IMG/VR virus record: IMGVR_UViG_2778261641_000010
Location: 1-17,095 of that record
Strand: one strand, 5' to 3'
DNA: 17,095 bases
DNA from: a virus
Taxonomy: Duplodnaviria > Heunggongvirae > Uroviricota > Caudoviricetes
Positions 1 through 9,185 of the stretch are shown piece by piece; the stretch's first letter is position 1; each line of letters begins with the position of its first letter. The notes under the pieces are model-generated. The model worked only from the letters and a program-made list of their open reading frames with translations. It made no database searches and was not told the DNA's origin. Made by a program: the position numbers and the translations under genes.

Positions 1-17
1 TTGCAGGAAACGGTAAA
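1..17. other. Inner end of the partner (left) crossover site / terminal inverted repeat of the invertible segment, truncated by the window edge
   Basis: Bases 1..17 are the reverse complement of 3027..3043 (1 mismatch). Bases 1..9 (ttgcaggaa) would be the last 9 bp of an inverted 26-bp site whose remainder lies left of the window. Confidence 0.5.
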
Positions 18-954
18 TCAGGCTTCTGGCGCATTACAGAAAAACCAGAACGGCGCAGATATTCCAGGAAAAGATACCTTCACCAAAAATATTGGTGCCT
101 GCCGCGCATACAGCCCATGGCTGAATATTGGTGGCGATAGTCAGGTCTGGACAACCGCGCAATTTATTTCGTGGCTGGAGAGTCAGGGAGCATTTAACCA
201 TCCTTACTGGATGTGCAAAGGCTCATGGGCTTATGCAAATAATAAGGTCATTACAGATACAGGTTGCGGAAATATTTGTCTTGCAGGTGCTGTGGTGGAA
301 GTTATTGGCACTCGCGGCGCAATGACCATACGCGTTACTACGCCGAGCACGTCCAGCGGTGGCGGAATTACTAACGCTCAATTCACTTATATTAATCATG
401 GTGATGCTTATGCTCCTGGCTGGCGACGAGACTACAACACGAAAAACCAGCAGCCTGCATTTGCTTTAGGGCAAACAGGACGCAGGGTCGCAAATGATAA
501 AGCTGTTGGCTGGAACTGGAATAGCGGCGTTTATGATGCAGATATCAGTGGCGCATCGACATTAATCCTCCACTTTAATATGAATGCGGGGAGTTGCCCT
601 GCTGTACAGTTCCGCGTGAATTATAAAAACGGCGGTATCTTTTATCGTTCAGCGCGTGATGGTTATGGCTTTGAAGCTAACTGGTCAGAGTTTTACACCA
701 CAACCCGCAAACCCTCTGCGGGGGATGTTGGTGCATATACGCAGGCAGAGTGTAACTCAAGGTTTATTACAGGTATTCGCCTGGGCGGTCTGTCATCTGT
801 TCAGACATGGAATGGTCCCGGCTGGTCTGACAGGTCAGGTTATGTCGTTACAGGTTCAGTTAACGGAAACCGTGATGAATTAATTGATACAACACAGGCA
901 AGGCCAATTCAGTATTGCATTAATGGAACGTGGTATAACGCGGGGAGTATTTAA
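1..954 (+). CDS. Alternative tail-fibre C-terminal (variable) domain cassette, 5'-truncated by the window edge; currently not joined to the stf constant part
   Basis: Open frame from base 1 to the stop at 952-954. The first 17 nt (ttgcaggaaacggtaaa, encoding LQETVN) are the reverse complement of 3027..3043 inside stf with one mismatch, then the sequence diverges. The C-terminus ...[14 protein letters not shown] matches the stf C-terminus ...FRPIQKYINGTWYN. It is followed 2 nt later by a tfa-type gene. No start codon or RBS of its own, as expected for a silent cassette. Confidence 0.7.
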
Positions 955-956
955 TT

Positions 957-1490
957 ATGATGCACTTAAAAAACATTACTGCTGGCAATCCTAAAACGAA
1001 AGAACAATACCAGCTAACAAAGCAATTTAACATCAAATGGCTTTATTCAGATGATGGAAAAAACTGGTATGAGGAACAAAAGAACTTTCAGCCTGATACG
1101 TTGAAAATGGTCTATGACCGTAACGGCGTTATTATTTGTATTGAAAAGGATGTTTCAGCAATTAATCCAGAAGGCGCAAGCGTCGTTGAGGTTCCTGATA
1201 TTACAGCAAATCGCCGGGCTGATATTTCGGGTAAATGGATGTTCAAAGATGGCGTAGTGGTAAAGCGAACTTATACCGAGGAAGAGCAGAGGCAGCAGGC
1301 GGAAAATGAAAAGCAAAGCCTGCTACAGCTCGTCAGGGATAAAACCCAGCTATGGGACTCACAGCTACGGCTGGGCATCATTTCCGACGAGAATAAACAA
1401 AAATTAACCGAGTGGATGCTCTATGCGCAGAAAGTCGAATCTACAGACACTTCCAGCCTGCCAGTAACGTTTCCCGAACAACCTGAATGA
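957..1490 (+). CDS. tfa: Tail fibre assembly protein (Tfa/Mu U-like chaperone), partner of the silent fibre-tip cassette
   Basis: 177-aa ORF. The N-terminal ~110 aa ([22 protein letters not shown]...[19 protein letters not shown]) are near-identical to the minus-strand Tfa at 1519..2046, and the C-terminal ~60 aa are divergent. It starts 2 nt after the upstream fibre-tip stop. Confidence 0.8.
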
Positions 1491-1493
1491 GAC

Positions 1494-1520
1494 AAGGCCC
1501 GATAGCGGGCCTTAATTTTT
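1494..1520 (+). terminator. Hairpin terminator between the two convergent tfa genes
   Basis: aaggcccg-atag-cgggcctt forms an 8-bp GC-rich stem with a 4-nt loop, followed on the plus strand by aatttttatt and preceded by an A-rich run on the minus strand. It lies exactly between the convergent stops at 1490 and 1519. Confidence 0.55.
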
Positions 1521-2046
1521 ATTCAGGCTTTTGTGGCCATTCAGGATTTGCCGTATCCACACGGCTGACCAGAACACTGTAGCGTTCCCATGACTCCAGT
1601 CGTGCGCGTTCCTCATCCGTCGCCATATTCAGCCTGACGGCGCGTTCCAGTGGCTGAATAATGCTTTCTGCTTCGGAAAGTAACGCGGCCTTTTGTGATT
1701 CTGCCTGTTGTTGCTGCTCATCTGTCGTATAAATCCGTTTAACTACAGTTCCGTCCTTAAACATCCACTTCCCTGAATCATCGGCGCGACGATTGGCTGT
1801 TATATCTGGAATCTCAACGACACTAAAGCCTTCGGGATTAAGCGTTGAGGCATCTCTGGTGATAGCGACAATAATATTATTTTCATCGTAAACAATCTTT
1901 ATTGTGTCTGGCTGAAAGTTCTTCACTTCCTCATACCAGTTTTTTCCGTCTTCGGACCATAACCAGATAACATCAAAATTCTTTGTTAGCTGATATTGCT
2001 CTTTTGTTTTTGGATTACCTGACTTAATGTTCTTTAAATGCTGCAT
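1519..2046 (-). CDS. tfa: Tail fibre assembly protein (Tfa) for the currently expressed fibre tip
   Basis: 175-aa ORF. ATG at 2046 lies 3 nt after the stf stop, with AGGTG upstream. The C-terminal motif ...[27 protein letters not shown] is typical of lambda Tfa / Mu U-family chaperones. Confidence 0.85.
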
Positions 2047-2049
2047 AAC

Positions 2050-5000
2050 TTACACCTGCGCAACGTTATACCATGTGCCATTGATGTATTTTTGTATCGG
2101 CCTGAAGATGGCTTCATCATCGCCATCTACTTCACCAATGATTCTTAATCCGGTAATCGTGTGTCCGGCTTTTTCATAACGACCACCACGCGCCATCAAT
2201 TGAACAACACGTGTGCCAAGTCGGACATCTCTCACATAGCGTGAGTCAAAATTGCCATAATTTCCGGGAATAATTTGCGCACCGCAAAGCCAGTTACCGT
2301 TATTGTCCATGTACGCCTGACCATCGGTGCCATTGGCTGTCCTTGAGTTATTAATCATGTAGATGCCAAATTGCTTGTTCCCCAGTCCACCTATCATGAA
2401 CTTGCGGTCAGCGTGATTCTGGCGAAGCAACGCCTGAGCGCTATCAGTGTTAACTATATTTTTCCCAAAGATAGCGTTGTTATCGCGCATCTGAATCCAC
2501 ATACCATTACTGCTGTTAATAGCAAAACGGTCTGAAAGCGTCTCCCCTGAAACATTAAGGCCACGCCCCATCGAAACAGCGCCAGTAGCGTTATTAATCC
2601 ATAATGGCCTTAATCCGTTATAAGTCCCCATGTTGTCACCGGAGTTTGTCAACATGAAGTATGTATTTGAACCATCATTACGAATAAAGAATCCGTAATT
2701 ACCATAAGCAATACGTAGGCCGTTTGCTGATTTTGATATGACTTCGCCATTTACAATGGCATTGACAAGAACATACAAAGCATCCCATTTAAGATTCATC
2801 AGGTCTTTTGTTGTGGTGCTTTGTTTGCTTCTCCATTTGAAATATTCATTGCCGTTGTCGCCTGTTTCAAACCACATGTATGAATCAGTATCGCTGTCGG
2901 CATCATTTTTAAAACCAATCTTCGCCCAGTCAGTATTTCGAATCCAGGCAAGGATTGAGTCATTTTCAAAAGTAAGCCCGCCGGACAAGGTATCGCCTGT
3001 CTTTTGAACGGCGTTACCAGCCTTGTTTACCGTTTCCTGTAAACCGAGGTATTCGATAACGGCGGCAACGGTCGATTTCGCAAGAATATCCCGCCCGACT
3101 TTTGTCAGGGTTGCCAGGCTGGCGACATCATTCCCCGTAAAATACGGAAACCTGTCTGCCGCAGTAGCAAGCCCGGCCAGCGCCGTCAGGGTGGCATCTT
3201 TCGGTTGCTTACCCGCAAGCGCGTTAGTCATGGTGGTCGCAAAATTCGGGTCGTTTCCCAGCGCCGCCGCCAGCTCGTTCAGCGTGTTCAGTGCGTCAGG
3301 TGACGAATCTACAAGGGCGGCAATCGCAGCCATAACGAAAGCCGTGCTTGCGATCTGAGTATTGTTAGTACCTTTTGGCGCAGTTGGTGTTGTTGGTGTT
3401 CCGGTCAGCGCCGGACTGTTCAGGGGCGCTTTCTTGTTCGTTTCATCCATTACCACCTTTACAGCTTTCGATGTCGCGGCCAGTGTTTCAGACGTGCTGT
3501 TGGTGGCGCTACTGAGCTGGACAAGGCCTTTTCGCGTCGTGCTGGCATCCTGCGCAGTATATTTACCGTTAGCAAGATCATACGCGGCCTTTACTGCTTT
3601 CGGCGTTGCAGCCTGCGTTTCAGACGTGCTGTTGGTTGCACTACTAAGCTGAACCACACCTTTTTTCGTCGTGCTCGCATCCTCAAGCGCCACGGCGGAT
3701 GCAATATCCTCTGCCCGTTTTGCCGCTGTCTCAGCGCGCGTTGCTGCAGATTCCGCCGTACTTTTGCTCTGAGCTGCTGCCGTCGCACTACCAGCAGCCT
3801 CTGTCGCCTTCGTGGATGCCGTCGTGGCGCTGCCCTTCGCTGCTGACGCCTGTCTGGTCGCCTCATCTTTTGAAGCAGACGCCGATGAGGCCGATGACGC
3901 CGCCGAACTGGCGGACGATGCCGCTGCCGTTTTTGAGGATTCTGCACGGGTTTCCGACACTTTCGCGTTCGTTTCGGATGTCTTCGCTGCGGAAGCTGAC
4001 CTCGCTGCTGCCGTGGCCTGTTCAGTGGCTTCGCCAGCCTTCGTTGTGGCTGTTGAAGCGGATGATGCGGCGCTTTCTGCCGACTTTCCGGCAGCGGTGG
4101 CACTGGCTGAGGCCTGCCCGGCACTTGTTGACGCGGCACTGGCAGATGATGCAGCCGCTGTTTTTGAGCCTGCCGCAGCTGAGGCACTCTGTCCCGCTGC
4201 CGTTTCAGAAGACCTGGCGTTCGTCTCGGACGTCTTTGCCGCCTTCGCGGAATTTCCTGCCGCCGTTGCCGAGGAAGCGGCACTACTGGCGCTTGATGAT
4301 GCGTTCGTTTCTGATGATTTCGCTGCCTCTTTTGAGGCCGCCGCATCCCAGGCTGAGGTGGCAGCTTCTGACGCCTTTGTGGTCGCTGCGGATGCAGAAG
4401 TGGCTGCAGATTTTTGTGACGCTGCCGCATTCGTTTCTGACGTTTTCGCCGCACCGGCACTGGTAGCTGCCGCGCTTTTTGAGGACTCTGCAGCGGCAGC
4501 ACTTTTTGATGCTTCAGTAGCCTTTGTTGATGCCGTTCCTGCGCTGGAAGACGCTGACTGAGCCGACGTCGCGGCCTGCCCGGCTGATGTGCTGGCTGCA
4601 CGTGCTGAGCCTGCAGCATCAGTCGCATGGGTTGCCGCCTCACGGGCTGATGTGCTGGCATCACTGGCTGACTTCTTCGCGGCTGCCGTGTTCTGTGCCA
4701 CCACGGACGCGTTACGCGCCACCTCTTCCACCATCAGCTCAAAACGGCGCAGTGCCTCCGGACGGGCGTCATCCTCCGTCATGGCACCGAGAAAATCATT
4801 CAGCGTACCGGGTCGGGAATCTTCATACACTGTGATGGTCCCGGCATGTGACGGCGGGAATCCTTCCACCAACAGAATAACGCTGTACTGACCGTACTCA
4901 ACGTCCATACTGTAACGCCCGGCTTCATCCGGATTTTCAGATGCCAGCGTGTTCACCACCACCGTGGTACTGTTACGTTTTGCTTTCAGCTGGATTGTGC

Positions 5001-5058
5001 AGTTCTGTACCGGTTTTCCTGTTCCGTCTTTCAGTACACCTGAAATTTTTACTGCCAT
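2050..5058 (-). CDS. stf: Side tail fibre protein Stf: lambda-like N-terminal constant part, long Ala/Ser/Thr-rich repetitive shaft, invertible C-terminal tip
   Basis: 1002 aa from the ATG at 5058 (MAVKISGVLKDGTGKPVQNCTIQLKA..., which I recognise as the lambda Stf N-terminus), with a GGAG RBS 5 nt upstream. The GTG two codons further upstream abuts the RBS and is rejected. Phage tail-fibre repeat motifs (DASTTxKGxVQLSSATNSTSE) occur twice. A gix-like site lies in frame at 3034..3059. Confidence 0.85.
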   Translation of the reverse strand: MAVKISGVLKDGTGKPVQNCTIQLKAKRNSTTVVVNTLASENPDEAGRYSMDVEYGQYSVILLVEGFPPSHAGTITVYEDSRPGTLNDFLGAMTEDDARPEALRRFELMVEEVARNASVVAQNTAAAKKSASDASTSAREAATHATDAAGSARAASTSAGQAATSAQSASSSAGTASTKATEASKSAAAAESSKSAAATSAGAAKTSETNAAASQKSAATSASAATTKASEAATSAWDAAASKEAAKSSETNASSSASSAASSATAAGNSAKAAKTSETNARSSETAAGQSASAAAGSKTAAASSASAASTSAGQASASATAAGKSAESAASSASTATTKAGEATEQATAAARSASAAKTSETNAKVSETRAESSKTAAASSASSAASSASSASASKDEATRQASAAKGSATTASTKATEAAGSATAAAQSKSTAESAATRAETAAKRAEDIASAVALEDASTTKKGVVQLSSATNSTSETQAATPKAVKAAYDLANGKYTAQDASTTRKGLVQLSSATNSTSETLAATSKAVKVVMDETNKKAPLNSPALTGTPTTPTAPKGTNNTQIASTAFVMAAIAALVDSSPDALNTLNELAAALGNDPNFATTMTNALAGKQPKDATLTALAGLATAADRFPYFTGNDVASLATLTKVGRDILAKSTVAAVIEYLGLQETVNKAGNAVQKTGDTLSGGLTFENDSILAWIRNTDWAKIGFKNDADSDTDSYMWFETGDNGNEYFKWRSKQSTTTKDLMNLKWDALYVLVNAIVNGEVISKSANGLRIAYGNYGFFIRNDGSNTYFMLTNSGDNMGTYNGLRPLWINNATGAVSMGRGLNVSGETLSDRFAINSSNGMWIQMRDNNAIFGKNIVNTDSAQALLRQNHADRKFMIGGLGNKQFGIYMINNSRTANGTDGQAYMDNNGNWLCGAQIIPGNYGNFDSRYVRDVRLGTRVVQLMARGGRYEKAGHTITGLRIIGEVDGDDEAIFRPIQKYINGTWYNVAQV
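3034..3059. other. gix/cix/pix-family 26-bp recombination (crossover) site for a Gin/Pin-type serine invertase, embedded in stf
   Basis: ttcctgtaaaccgaggtattcgataa: imperfect dyad around a central GA, and from memory a ~23/26 match to Mu gixL (TTCCTGTAAACCGAGGTTTTGGATAA). It sits exactly where the two fibre-tip sequences stop being alike. It encodes ...IEYLGLQE... in the stf frame. Confidence 0.7.
3437..3700 (-). repeat. Tandem direct repeat (2 x 132 bp, imperfect) inside stf encoding duplicated phage tail-fibre repeat motif
   Basis: The block cagacgtgctgttggt(g/t)gc(g/a)ctact(g/a)agctg appears at ~3489..3520 and ~3621..3652, 132 bp (44 codons) apart. Encoded peptides are DASTTKKGVVQLSSATNSTSETQAATPKAV and DASTTRKGLVQLSSATNSTSETLAATSKAV. 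Confidence 0.7.
3700..4730 (-). repeat. Low-complexity Ala/Ser/Thr/Lys-rich periodic region of stf (fibre shaft) with recurring AAKTSETNA-type units
   Basis: The translation shows AAKTSETNAAAS / AAKSSETNASSS / AAKTSETNARSS / AAKTSETNAKVS units. All three frames of both strands are open over much of this stretch because of the GC-rich repetitive composition. Confidence 0.6.
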
Positions 5059-5067
5059 ATTCACTCC

Positions 5068-5122: not shown

Positions 5123-5722
5123 TCAGAATTTATAACCGACACCCACGATGAAACCGTCAGTGCGCCAGTCGCCACTGCCGGAACCTTCATAAGCAAGGTC
5201 AATGGCCACGGATTCGGTCGGGTTAAACTGCACGCCAGCCCCCCACGCCAGAGACGTGTTGCTGTGGCGACCGCCATCACTCCCGGTCAGCACATCGTGC
5301 GTTTTCCCCTTGTTGTCAGTTACGCGGAGATAATCCCCGGAGAACGTCGAAACACGGCTGTAAGCCACACCCGCCATCGCATAAGCACTGAACCATTCAT
5401 TCACGCGTACAGACGGCCCCGCCATCACGCTGAACCAGCGGTTACGCACTGAATCTTCATGCCAGCGGGTATCGCTGTAACGGGTAATCTGGCGATTCTT
5501 GTCTCCTGCATAGCTGAATGACGTCACCAGCCCCAGCGTGTCCGTAAATTCATAACGGTATTTCACGTTAATGCCCTTCAGGTCATCACTGCCTGGCATA
5601 TCAGTATGGGTCTGAAGATACCCGGCGCTTAGTGTGGACTGATGCTCTGCTGCGCTCGCTGGCGTACCAGCGGCAACCAGCCAGACTACTGCGGACAGAA
5701 TAACAGCACATAATTTACGCAT
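5123..5722 (-). CDS. lom: Lom outer-membrane protein (Ail/Lom/PagC/OmpX-family beta-barrel); lysogenic-conversion moron
   Basis: 199 aa. N-terminal signal peptide [29 protein letters not shown]-terminal ...[10 protein letters not shown] beta-barrel signature, and strong resemblance to lambda Lom as I recall it ([10 protein letters not shown]...[11 protein letters not shown]...[34 protein letters not shown]). RBS AGAGGT 5 nt before the ATG. Confidence 0.9.
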
Positions 5723-5789: not shown

Positions 5790-8700
5790 TCAGCTAATCG
5801 TGATGCCTGCAGTGGCTTTCTTCATCACAACAACCAGCAAATCGCTGATACTTGCTGTGGGATACCAGTCATTTACCCACCATGCTGATACAGAAAACTC
5901 CAGTGTCATTACACCACTGCCTGCAGGCATATCAATAACACCCGTGTATATCAGCGTATTATCCAGAGCCGTTCGGTTATAAATTTCAGCCCCGTTTTTC
6001 TTCACTATCAGGCGGCATGACGAATAAGTATCGCTATTCTCCCGCTCATGTCTGGCACCGCTGAAAGCCACCGCTGGAATAACAATTTGCCGGTCAAACG
6101 GCTGATCGTCATAAACCCTGACGGTAATGGTCCCTGATGGCCACCGCTCCGGAGCACGGGAGTCCCGGGGGAAAGCTTTGCCCACTGTTTTAACGAGATC
6201 GCCTTCAATCTGGTTCGCGGACAGTTTTCCCAGAACCCGACAGTTCTCGTTAATCGTGACGTTGTTGAGCGTCCCGGAGTTCGCATTCACGTTACCGCTG
6301 ATATCGGCATTTTTCGCCGTCAGCCGCCCGTCCGGTGTCAGGGAAAATGCCGGAGGATTACCGCCGCTGGTAATGGTCGGAGCCGTCAGGCGTTTCAGGA
6401 ACACGTCGTTCATGAATATCTGATCGCCCTGACCAACAAACATTGGTCTTGTGTTGCCATTAGACGGATCAATAAACGCGATACGGTTAGCGGCAACCAG
6501 GAACTGGCTCAGTTTGCCTTCCTCCGTGTCCTCCATGCTGAGGCCAATACCCGCGACATAATGTTTGCCGTCTTTGGTCTGCTCAATTTTGACGCCCCAC
6601 ATGGCATTCCACTTATCGTTGGCGTCCTTCCACTCTTTCGAAAACTGCTCCAGTTTGCTGGCGTTATCTTCCGTCAGCTCAAAGTTTTCCAGTAGCTCCT
6701 TGCCGAGATGCGTTTTATTGATCAACCCTTTATAAAAATTCAGATAACCTTCCGCATCATCGCTCGCCCGACCGACGGCCTCCACAAATGCCGATTTACC
6801 AACGGTATTCACGCTGCGGATATAAAAGTAATAATCATAACCCGGCTTAATATTGCTACTGGCAGCTATCCAGTACAGCGCCGTGCCAAGATAGCGGGCT
6901 GTGGTTTCAACCTGCCTGATATCAGCAATCCGCTTTTCCGAGAACCAGAACTCAAACTGCACCGTCGGGTCATATACAGCCAGTTTCGGGACCGCTGTTA
7001 TCTGAAAATACCCTGGTATCAGTTCAATAGTGACAGGCGCTGCAGGTGCGGCAATCCGGAACGATACCGATGCCGGATCGCCCTGCTGCCCCCACGCATT
7101 TGCCGCCCGGACCGTCAGCGTGTAACGCCCCAGCGCCAGCTGCCTGAAGCGGTATGTGGTTTCCGTCGTCCGGACCGTGCTGACCAGCCGCTCACTGCCG
7201 TCATCCGCTGTTACGGTCAGACGGAGCAGGAAGCTCACGCCCTTCACCACCTTCGGCGTGTCCCAGCGGGCCAGTACCTGATATTCCCCGCTGTCTGCGG
7301 AGACTTCGGCGGTCAGATGCTGCACTGCTGGCGGCGTGACACCATTCACCGTGCCGCTCTGGTCGCCGTCAAAGTGCGCCCCGTTATCCACGATGGCTTC
7401 TTTTTCCGGTACATGCTGCACGGCGGTGATGGCATACGTGCCGTCGTCGTTCTCACGGATACTCACGCAGCGGAACAGGCGCTGGCGCAGCGTCGGCAGC
7501 TTCAGCCCCCATACGCTGTATTCAGCAACGCCGTCAGGAACACGGCTCACTTTCACCTTCACGCCGTCGGCGACGGACTGAACCTCCACGCTGACCGGAT
7601 TGCCACTTCCGTCAACCAGGCTTATCAGCGTGGTACCGGAGGATGGCAGCGTGATTTCACGGTCGAGCGTCAGCGTCCGGGTCTGGCTGTTCACCGCCAG
7701 CACACGACCACCGTTGCTGATACCGGCATAGTCATCATCGCAGATTTCAATGACATCGCCCGGTACATGGCGAAGCCCTTCAGCACCCACGCTGAAGTCC
7801 ACGGTCTGCGTTTCCAGCAGCTCCGTTTTAATCAGCCACAGCCCGGCGCGGTGTGCCTGCCCCCGGCTGGTACAGCCAAAGGCATCCATCTTCGTGACGT
7901 TACGACCGTAACGGGCAATGGCCTGCGTGTCCTCCACAAGCTCTGTTGCCGTCTCCCAGCCATTGTCCGGGTCAATCCAGTTCACCTCAACGGCATTATG
8001 GCGGTCCTTCAGGGCGCTGAAGCTGTAGCGGAACGGCGCGCCATCATCCGGCATCACCACATTACTGCGGTTATAGGTCCACACCTTATCCGACTGTCGG
8101 TCCTGCACGAACGTCAGCGTCTGCCCGTTCCATACCGGCATACAGCGCATCGCCGAGCAGAAATCACTGAGCACATCCCACGCCTTGCGCTGTGTGGTCA
8201 GGTACGCATTACAGGTGATGCGCGGCTCCGTGCCGCCAAAGCCGTCCGGCACTGACTGGTCGCAGTACTGGCCGATGACATACAGCGCCCATTTGTCCAC
8301 ATCCGCCGCACCAAGACGTTTCCCCATGCCGTAGCGCGGGTGGGTCAGCATATCCCACAGACACCAGGCCATGTTGTTGCTGTATGCTGGTTTTAACGTT
8401 CCGTCCCAGATACCGCTGTATTGTCGCGTCTGCGGGTTATAGTTCGACGGCACCTGCAGAATGCGCCCGCGAAGATGATAATTACGGCTCACCTGCTGGC
8501 TGCCGAACTGCTCCGAGTCCACCTGTACGCCGACCAGTGCCGTGTTCGGGTAGCACTGTTTCACATCGATGATCTCGGTGTATGACGACCAGAGCGTTTT
8601 GTTCTGCAGCTGGTCTGTGGTGCTGTCCGGCGTCATCCTGCGCATCCGGATATTGAACGGGCGCGGCGGCAGGTTATCCACCACCACCGAGGCCAGATAC

Positions 8701-9185
8701 TGCGAGGTGGTTTTGCCCTTAATGGTGATGTCTTTTTCCGTCACCCAGCCACCGTTACGCTGTATCTGAACCAGCAGGCGGACTTCCGACGGATTCCTGT
8801 CTCCCTTTGAGGTGGTTTCCACCAGTGCCTGTACACCGAAGGTAAAGCGCAGACGGTCGATGTTTGCCGACGTAATGGTACGGGTGATCGGCGTGTCATA
8901 TTTCACTTCCGTACCCAGCACCGTCTCGGAGCCGGAGGATTCAAACCCCTCCGGCGGTGTCTGCTCCTGCTCACCTGCCCGGAACACCACCGTGACACCG
9001 GCGATGTTGGTATTCCCTTCACTGTCCAGCACCGGCGTACTGTTCAGCAGCACGCTTTTTAATCCATCCACCGGACCTTCTATCGGCCCTTCGCTGATGG
9101 CATCGATCACACTCAGCAACTGCGTGGACTTCAGGTTATCCTTCGCTTCGCGCGGGGTATGCCCCTTACTGCTGCCTTTACCCAT
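5790..9185 (-). CDS. J: Tail tip / host specificity protein J (central tail fibre)
   Basis: 1131 aa. The N-terminus [45 protein letters not shown]... is the lambda J N-terminus as I recall it. The size and the position after I fit, and a GGAG RBS precedes the ATG. Confidence 0.9.

Follow-up and report, generated by a model that had tools for sequence, protein, structure and literature searches.

Gene organization at the tail-fibre locus

The stretch of DNA analysed here (17,095 nt, called the window throughout) covers the tail end of a lambdoid prophage, with J (5790..9185), lom (5123..5722), tape-measure and other tail genes that are 96-97% identical to those of many E. coli prophages. The IMG/VR loci closest to the window are 90-97% identical to it, in pieces. 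The tail-fibre gene stf occupies 2050..5064 on the minus strand and encodes 1004 aa. Its first 673 residues (3046..5064, minus strand) form a constant part of the lambda type, equivalent to Sc, as judged from the open reading frame and from Pfam, which places phage_tail_N (PF08400) at aa 3-136 together with Phage_fiber_2 repeats. Upstream of stf aa 669, no homology to Mu S was found save short repeat motifs. The constant part also contains tandem internal repeats (window 3456..3664, where 3456-3560 resembles 3587-3664, both with Phage_fiber_2 motifs) and a long Ala/Ser/Thr-rich stretch of low complexity at about 3700..4900. BLAST matches over this part are split because relatives differ there by indels.

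The remainder of stf (2050..3045, minus strand) is the current variable tip, equivalent to Sv, and carries a Pfam Gp34_trimer domain. From stf aa 669, which corresponds to Mu S aa 166 and to the site described below, the protein is 88% identical to Mu S in amino acids as far as the C terminus. The assembly chaperone of this expressed tip, equivalent to U, lies at 1519..2046 on the minus strand (Pfam Caudo_TAP, E 7.7e-37) and is collinear with Mu U. A second set faces the other way. The alternative chaperone, equivalent to U' and silent in the current orientation, lies at 957..1490 on the plus strand (Caudo_TAP, E 5.7e-37) and is collinear with Mu U', and the alternative tip, equivalent to Sv', runs as an open frame from the window edge over 1..954 on the plus strand, with a Pfam gp37_C domain. 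The frame 1..954 has neither an N-terminal part nor a promoter of its own, and it would be expressed only after inversion. Thus Sv-U on the minus strand and U'-Sv' on the plus strand stand in opposite orientations, as they do in Mu and P1, and the four cassette ORFs and stf are all intact in the window.

Two further features of the cassettes may be recorded. The chaperone genes form a diverged inverted repeat (955..1313 versus 1690..2048), with 163 nt at 75% and 165 nt at 71% identity. Between them, at about 1494..1512, stands a GC-rich hairpin followed by T's (aggcccgatagcgggcctt aattttt), which could be a transcription terminator for either direction.

The visible part of this segment, which is of the Mu G and S. 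boydii B kind, extends over 1..3045; it is identified by its identity to Mu, D108 and P1 DNA and by its occurrence in both orientations in relatives. Window 4..3066 is 94.1-94.5% identical to the G segments of Mu and D108 and 92% identical to the P1 C segment, and the DNA match stops at the site. As the homology to Mu S begins at this same place, the site marks where a constant shaft of the lambda type gives way to a variable segment of the Mu G type.

The crossover site and its reading frame

The site at 3034..3059 reads ttcctgtaaaccgaggtattcgataa, that is, an inner half-site TTCCTGTAAACC (3034-3045), the central dinucleotide GA (3046-3047) and an outer half-site GGTATTCGATAA (3048-3059). Din-type invertases cut and exchange strands at the central dinucleotide. 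The two half-sites make an imperfect dyad, matching at 7/12 positions, and the whole fits the pattern of Din-invertase sites, with two imperfectly symmetric 12-bp halves around a 2-bp core (TTC---AAAC- -A -GTTT---GAA). Where the outer half deviates from the ideal palindrome, it does so just as bixL and cixR do.

The closest published counterpart is bixL of Shigella boydii, TTCCTGTAAACC GA GGTATTCGATAA, which is identical to the window site at 26/26 positions. The bix sites bound the invertible B segment of S. boydii and are targets of PinB (PMC3241671, Table 3, Din-family sites; Tominaga et al. 1991, GenBank D00660). The same table gives bixR as TTCCTGTAAACC GA GGTTTTAGATAA, the sequence of the partner site in relatives. 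Mu gixL and gixR, taken from both boundaries of the G segment in NC_000929 (TTCCTGTAAACCGAGGTTTTGGATAA), match the window site at 24/26 positions, and P1 cixR (TTCTCTTAAACCAAGGTATTGGATAA) at 21/26. The native 20-bp gix core CTGTAAACCGAGGTTTTGGA (PMC5175349) agrees with this comparison. Since the identity to bixL is complete, the site is real but already known.

An earlier note on this DNA had recognised a gix-like 26-bp crossover site with imperfect 12-bp halves around GA, and this is borne out. The Mu gix string that it gave is identical to both boundaries in NC_000929 and to the published table. It had counted about three differences from Mu gix, where there are two (position 18 T>A and position 21 G>C). 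The close resemblance to Mu gixL that it described holds, but the S. boydii site is closer still. The alignment to authentic Gin-family sites is thus good.

Could ordinary coding sequence resemble gix by chance? The shortness of the motif is all that speaks for it. At up to three mismatches the 26-mer occurs once in the window against a chance expectation of 0.00 (200 shuffles), it is bixL throughout, and the 3-kb segment that it bounds is about 94% identical to Mu G. On the shuffles and these two identities we rejected a chance resemblance, the probability of which we regard as negligible.

The gene stf reads through the site in frame as STVAAVIEYLGLQETVNKAG, also given as …VIEYLGLQETVN…, and the residues across the crossover are ...IEYL/GLQETVN..., the slash marking the crossover. 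Translation of the minus strand thus agrees with the earlier reading ...IEYLGLQE.... The same holds for the idea that either tip could be fused in frame. The modelled inverted stf (Sc + GGT + window 1..954) is in frame and 991 aa long, with a single stop at its end, and the current fusion is likewise an open frame. Further sites and cassettes were sought within the window with the full site, both half-sites and the core AAACCNAGGTWT, and no matches above chance were found outside 3034..3059. Additional copies of the half-site, which had been proposed as a pointer to further cassettes, therefore did not materialise in the window, where half-site matches do not go beyond chance.

The inverted partner at the left edge

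The inner end of a bixR-type partner lies at 1..17. The reverse complement of 1..17 pairs with 3026..3042 at 16/17 positions, and relatives with an identical left end carry the rest. Bases 1-9 of the window (TTGCAGGAA) are the final 9 nt of the partner's inner half, and bases 10-17 continue the inverted repeat. The partner's GGT, its central TC and its outer half would fall beyond the left edge, and 3043..3045 would pair with bases there. The window starts 3 nt within the partner's inner half-site, so that the supplied sequence ends inside the inverted repeat. The single mismatch is at window base 3, a G where the right arm predicts A. A repeat search delimited the arms as 1-41 and 3002-3042, at 73% identity. 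The earlier note had paired window 1..17 with 3027..3045; the inverted repeat is real in substance, but these coordinates were slightly off.

Two relatives whose left end is identical to that of the window (L038 and L124) carry the partner as TTATCTAAAACC TC GGTTTGCAGGAA. In most other relatives it is TTATCTAAAACC TC GGTTTACAGGAA, which is bixR read base for base on the opposite strand, so that the central dinucleotides match. Overall, the partner in relatives can be written TTATCTAAAACC TC GGTTT[A/G]CAGGAA, where TC is GA on the other strand. Thus the partner, whose absence the earlier note had named as a possible objection, is present as an inner end in the window and as a full inverted site in relatives.

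The inner half-sites differ here by one base outside the crossover dinucleotide, T at 3040 versus the C implied by window base 3, and each of the two variants is frequent among natural sequences. When the polymorphism (site position 7) was set against the cassettes, the T variant occurred with cassette A 32 times, with B 37 times and with C 20 times, and the C variant with A 12 times and with B 8 times. We tried this base as a marker of the crossover point and rejected it, as it does not segregate cleanly with the cassette and has zero resolution within the site.

Three relatives show unusual arrangements of the sites. On one contig (L124, IMGVR_UViG_2690316161_000025) the partner site is present in two identical copies, each with the same Sv' start, about 8.1 kb apart. 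In L050 and L096 the stf-type outer half-site (TTATCGAATACC) stands on both sides of the segment, about 2.9 kb apart, and L096 has a Gin-like gene downstream on the stf side. Misassembly could account for the layout of L050 and L096, as could a rearrangement of the element.

Both orientations of the segment in natural genomes

In IMG/VR, 94 contigs carry the exact 26-mer and 24 more carry a one-base variant (TTCCTGCAAACC...). In these 118 contigs the outside flanks are at least 91% identical to the window. Cassette classes were assigned from the 80 nt inside the site, the inverted class being the reverse complement of window 10..89, from the other end of the segment. The inside flank was the cassette of the window in 44 contigs and the inverted cassette in 45; a third class accounted for 21, other cassettes for 5, and the flank was too short in 3. 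Among complete E. coli genomes, 300-nt junction queries gave full-length matches to the junction of the window in 359 genomes and to the modelled inverted junction in 126 (best match 99.7%). Hence, at the level of the population and across genomes, the segment occurs in both orientations at the same outside flank. Only single cases, L101 and L108 among them, resemble direct inversion products. L108 has the stf-side outer half as TTATCGAATACC TC GGT, immediately followed by window 1..65 (100% identity), and this is exactly the product that inversion predicts.

The third cassette class, C, comprises 21 loci (L010, L013, L025, L027, L030, L041, L044 and others), and rarer classes were found at five loci (L036, L062, L103, L106 and L118). 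These further cassettes have in common only about 9 nt, (g/a)tttaccgt, beside the site. The segment is also met outside lambdoid prophages. In L122 (NZ_CP137737.1) the site and segment lie in the fibre gene of a P2-like prophage, next to baseplate J and tail protein I genes and with an intact 199-aa recombinase, and in plasmid pGF31-D (L123, NZ_CP172156.1) they lie on a 39-kb circle with P2-like baseplate genes. In these two elements the segment is 94-96% identical to that of the window, and the 300-nt junction queries match at 99.3% and 99.7%.

This diversity suggests that the junction also acts as a splice point for the exchange of tip modules, and the two orientations could partly stem from horizontal exchange of cassettes and not from recent inversion. 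In its extreme form, the junction would be only a patch of homology (...GLQETVN...) at which general recombination swaps tips horizontally, with no site-specific inversion here. The joining of one site and one outside flank to at least four different inside cassettes is in keeping with this, as is the spread of the segment over lambdoid, P2-like, Mu-like and P1-like elements and a 39-kb plasmid. Against it, the two most frequent cassettes correspond exactly to the opposite ends of a single segment, present in one orientation or the other; relatives have a complete inverted partner site with an adjacent serine invertase; and the 26-mer is bixL, listed as a PinB target in PMC3241671 Table 3 after the 1991 S. 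boydii sequence paper. We therefore rejected a purely homologous-recombination junction, which we consider very unlikely. Exchange of modules and site-specific inversion are, moreover, mutually compatible.

The invertase in relatives

In relatives, an ORF of 195-201 aa with Pfam Resolvase and HTH_7 domains begins about 55 nt beyond the partner site. Its identity to Gin is about 85%, and it matches the crystal structures 3uj3 and 4m6f of Mu Gin with E ~1e-99. The gene is intact, for example, in L038, L056 and L122, and L038 also carries the G variant of the window. Nucleotides 19-90 of the L038 invertase gene are identical to Mu gin at 72/72 positions, at the position of the Cin enhancer as annotated in the P1 record. 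Judging from these relatives, the invertase of the present genome would lie just left of window base 1.

The state of the gene varies. Among about 30 IMG/VR relatives with a readable left flank, about 15 have an intact invertase and about 15 match only residues 1-99 of Gin. In the closest full-length E. coli relative (H1/L002) a recombinase remnant of 64 aa (L002 2735..2929) remains beside the partner. At the loci with a shortened invertase (L002, L012, L019, L021, L028, L043, L044, L053, L060 and others) the segment and both sites are intact, in either orientation.

Because about half of the relatives have a cut-down invertase (about 99 or 64 codons), the present copy may be locked or may rely on Pin paralogues in trans. 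An authentic site and segment could thus persist here as a relic, its invertase truncated or absent, and would stay locked with Sv joined to stf except where a Pin paralogue elsewhere in the genome acts in trans. The 64-aa remnant in the closest relative and the shortened genes in half of the readable flanks favour such a relic, and the one-base difference between the inner half-sites indicates some drift. On the other hand, about 15 relatives retain intact invertases of 195-201 aa, including L038 with the same G variant as the window; the four cassette ORFs and stf of the window are intact; and trans-acting Pin paralogues do invert the segment of another prophage in E. coli K-12 (PMC12529663). 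We hold this frozen state to be possible, if somewhat doubtful.

A variant of the same idea is that the invertase is truncated, that other prophages supply Pin paralogues which flip the intact switch in trans, and that the switch is retained to serve the host rather than the host range of the phage. If this were so, one Stf variant might, for example, block the adsorption of other phages, as has been reported for StfE2 of e14 with PinQ. Nothing in the window argues for it, and we regard it as improbable.

Interpretation and proposed mechanism

Taken together, we assign 3034..3059 as the stf-proximal, bixL-type recombination site of a tail-fibre host-range switch of the Gin/Pin/Cin family in a lambdoid prophage, with a probability of roughly 93%. 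The locus has the architecture of Mu G, P1 C and S. boydii B, that is, an in-frame crossover, a constant N-terminus and two tips, each with its chaperone, the two sets standing head to head. Because the site is in frame, the 673-aa N-terminus of the lambda-type Stf joins either the Mu-S-like tip with its chaperone, which is the state seen, or the Mu-S'-like tip with its own.

A mechanism may be proposed for this assigned switch. A small serine invertase, encoded just past the left edge or supplied in trans by a Pin paralogue, would bind the site and its inverted partner about 3.05 kb away as dimers. A Fis-bound enhancer within the 5' end of the invertase gene would assemble the synapse, and both sites would then be cut at the central GA/TC with a 2-nt stagger. 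Subunit rotation and religation would leave the ~3-kb segment inverted, exchanging Stf-Sv/U for Stf-Sv'/U' or the reverse, and receptor specificity would change accordingly. This scheme is built on direct observations, namely the identity of the site and of the segment, the conserved frame, the visible inner end of the partner, and the finding of both junctions in nature. Catalysis and dependence on Fis are presumed from Mu Gin, Hin and PinB, and by the same analogy the present copy may still flip.

The relevance of the assignment is mainly to annotation. Two C-termini are available to the 1004-aa stf; the ORF at 1..954, which has no promoter, is a silent cassette and not a pseudogene; and either orientation of the segment may appear in assemblies. 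More broadly, the fibres of lambdoid, P2-like, Mu-like and P1-like elements have all received one invertible host-range module, of the Mu G, P1 C and Shigella B type, with the join at the same 26-bp junction. The site itself raises no new question. What lies here is the B-segment type of S. boydii on a lambdoid stf.

Comparison with known inversion systems

The S. boydii B segment with PinB offers the closest match at the level of the sites, as the window site is bixL and the partner in relatives is identical to bixR; the partner in the window differs from bixR at one base of the inner half (G at window base 3). The two also share the Mu-G-like arrangement Sv-U / U'-Sv', and likeness beyond the two 26-mers is indirect, coming through the P1 record, which reports 93% identity of this type of segment to D00660.

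The gix sites of Mu have the same inner half and the same central GA, and the outer half is two bases off (GGTATTCGATAA in the window versus GGTTTTGGATAA in Mu). The G segments of Mu and D108 are about 94% identical in DNA over 3 kb, with the site at the equivalent in-frame Sc/Sv junction, and the invertase of the relatives shares about 85% identity with Gin and has the same enhancer region. The fibre itself differs, since the constant part in Mu is a 165-aa Sc and here it is a 673-aa lambda-type Stf, and the host element is, unlike Mu, a lambdoid prophage with J, lom and tape-measure genes. With the P1 C segment and Cin the window shares family and architecture; its outer half matches that of cixR (GGTATTGGATAA) at 11/12 positions, and the segments are 92% identical over the ~3 kb that they have in common. 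In contrast, the core of cix is AA instead of GA, its inner half differs (TTCTCTTAAACC in P1), and the P1 C segment is 4.2 kb long.

In the e14 prophage of E. coli K-12, pixL/pixR, the P segment and Pin (PinE) likewise constitute a serine-invertase switch within prophage stf genes, whereas the pix site (TTCTCCCAAACC AA ...), the length of the segment (1.8 kb) and the cassettes are different. The e14 P segment is also inverted by PinQ and PinR, so paralogous Pin enzymes can serve such sites in trans (PMC12529663). Min of plasmid p15B and Hin/hix of Salmonella have the common 26-bp site design and are Din serine invertases dependent on Fis and an enhancer. However, Min works with six sites and many cassettes, where a single pair is evident here, and Hin flips a promoter, where coding sequence is switched here. 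Systematic surveys of programmed inversion have recognised tail-fibre genes as a class of targets, including a Mu-S-like fibre of an E. coli prophage confirmed by long reads (PMC9881135).
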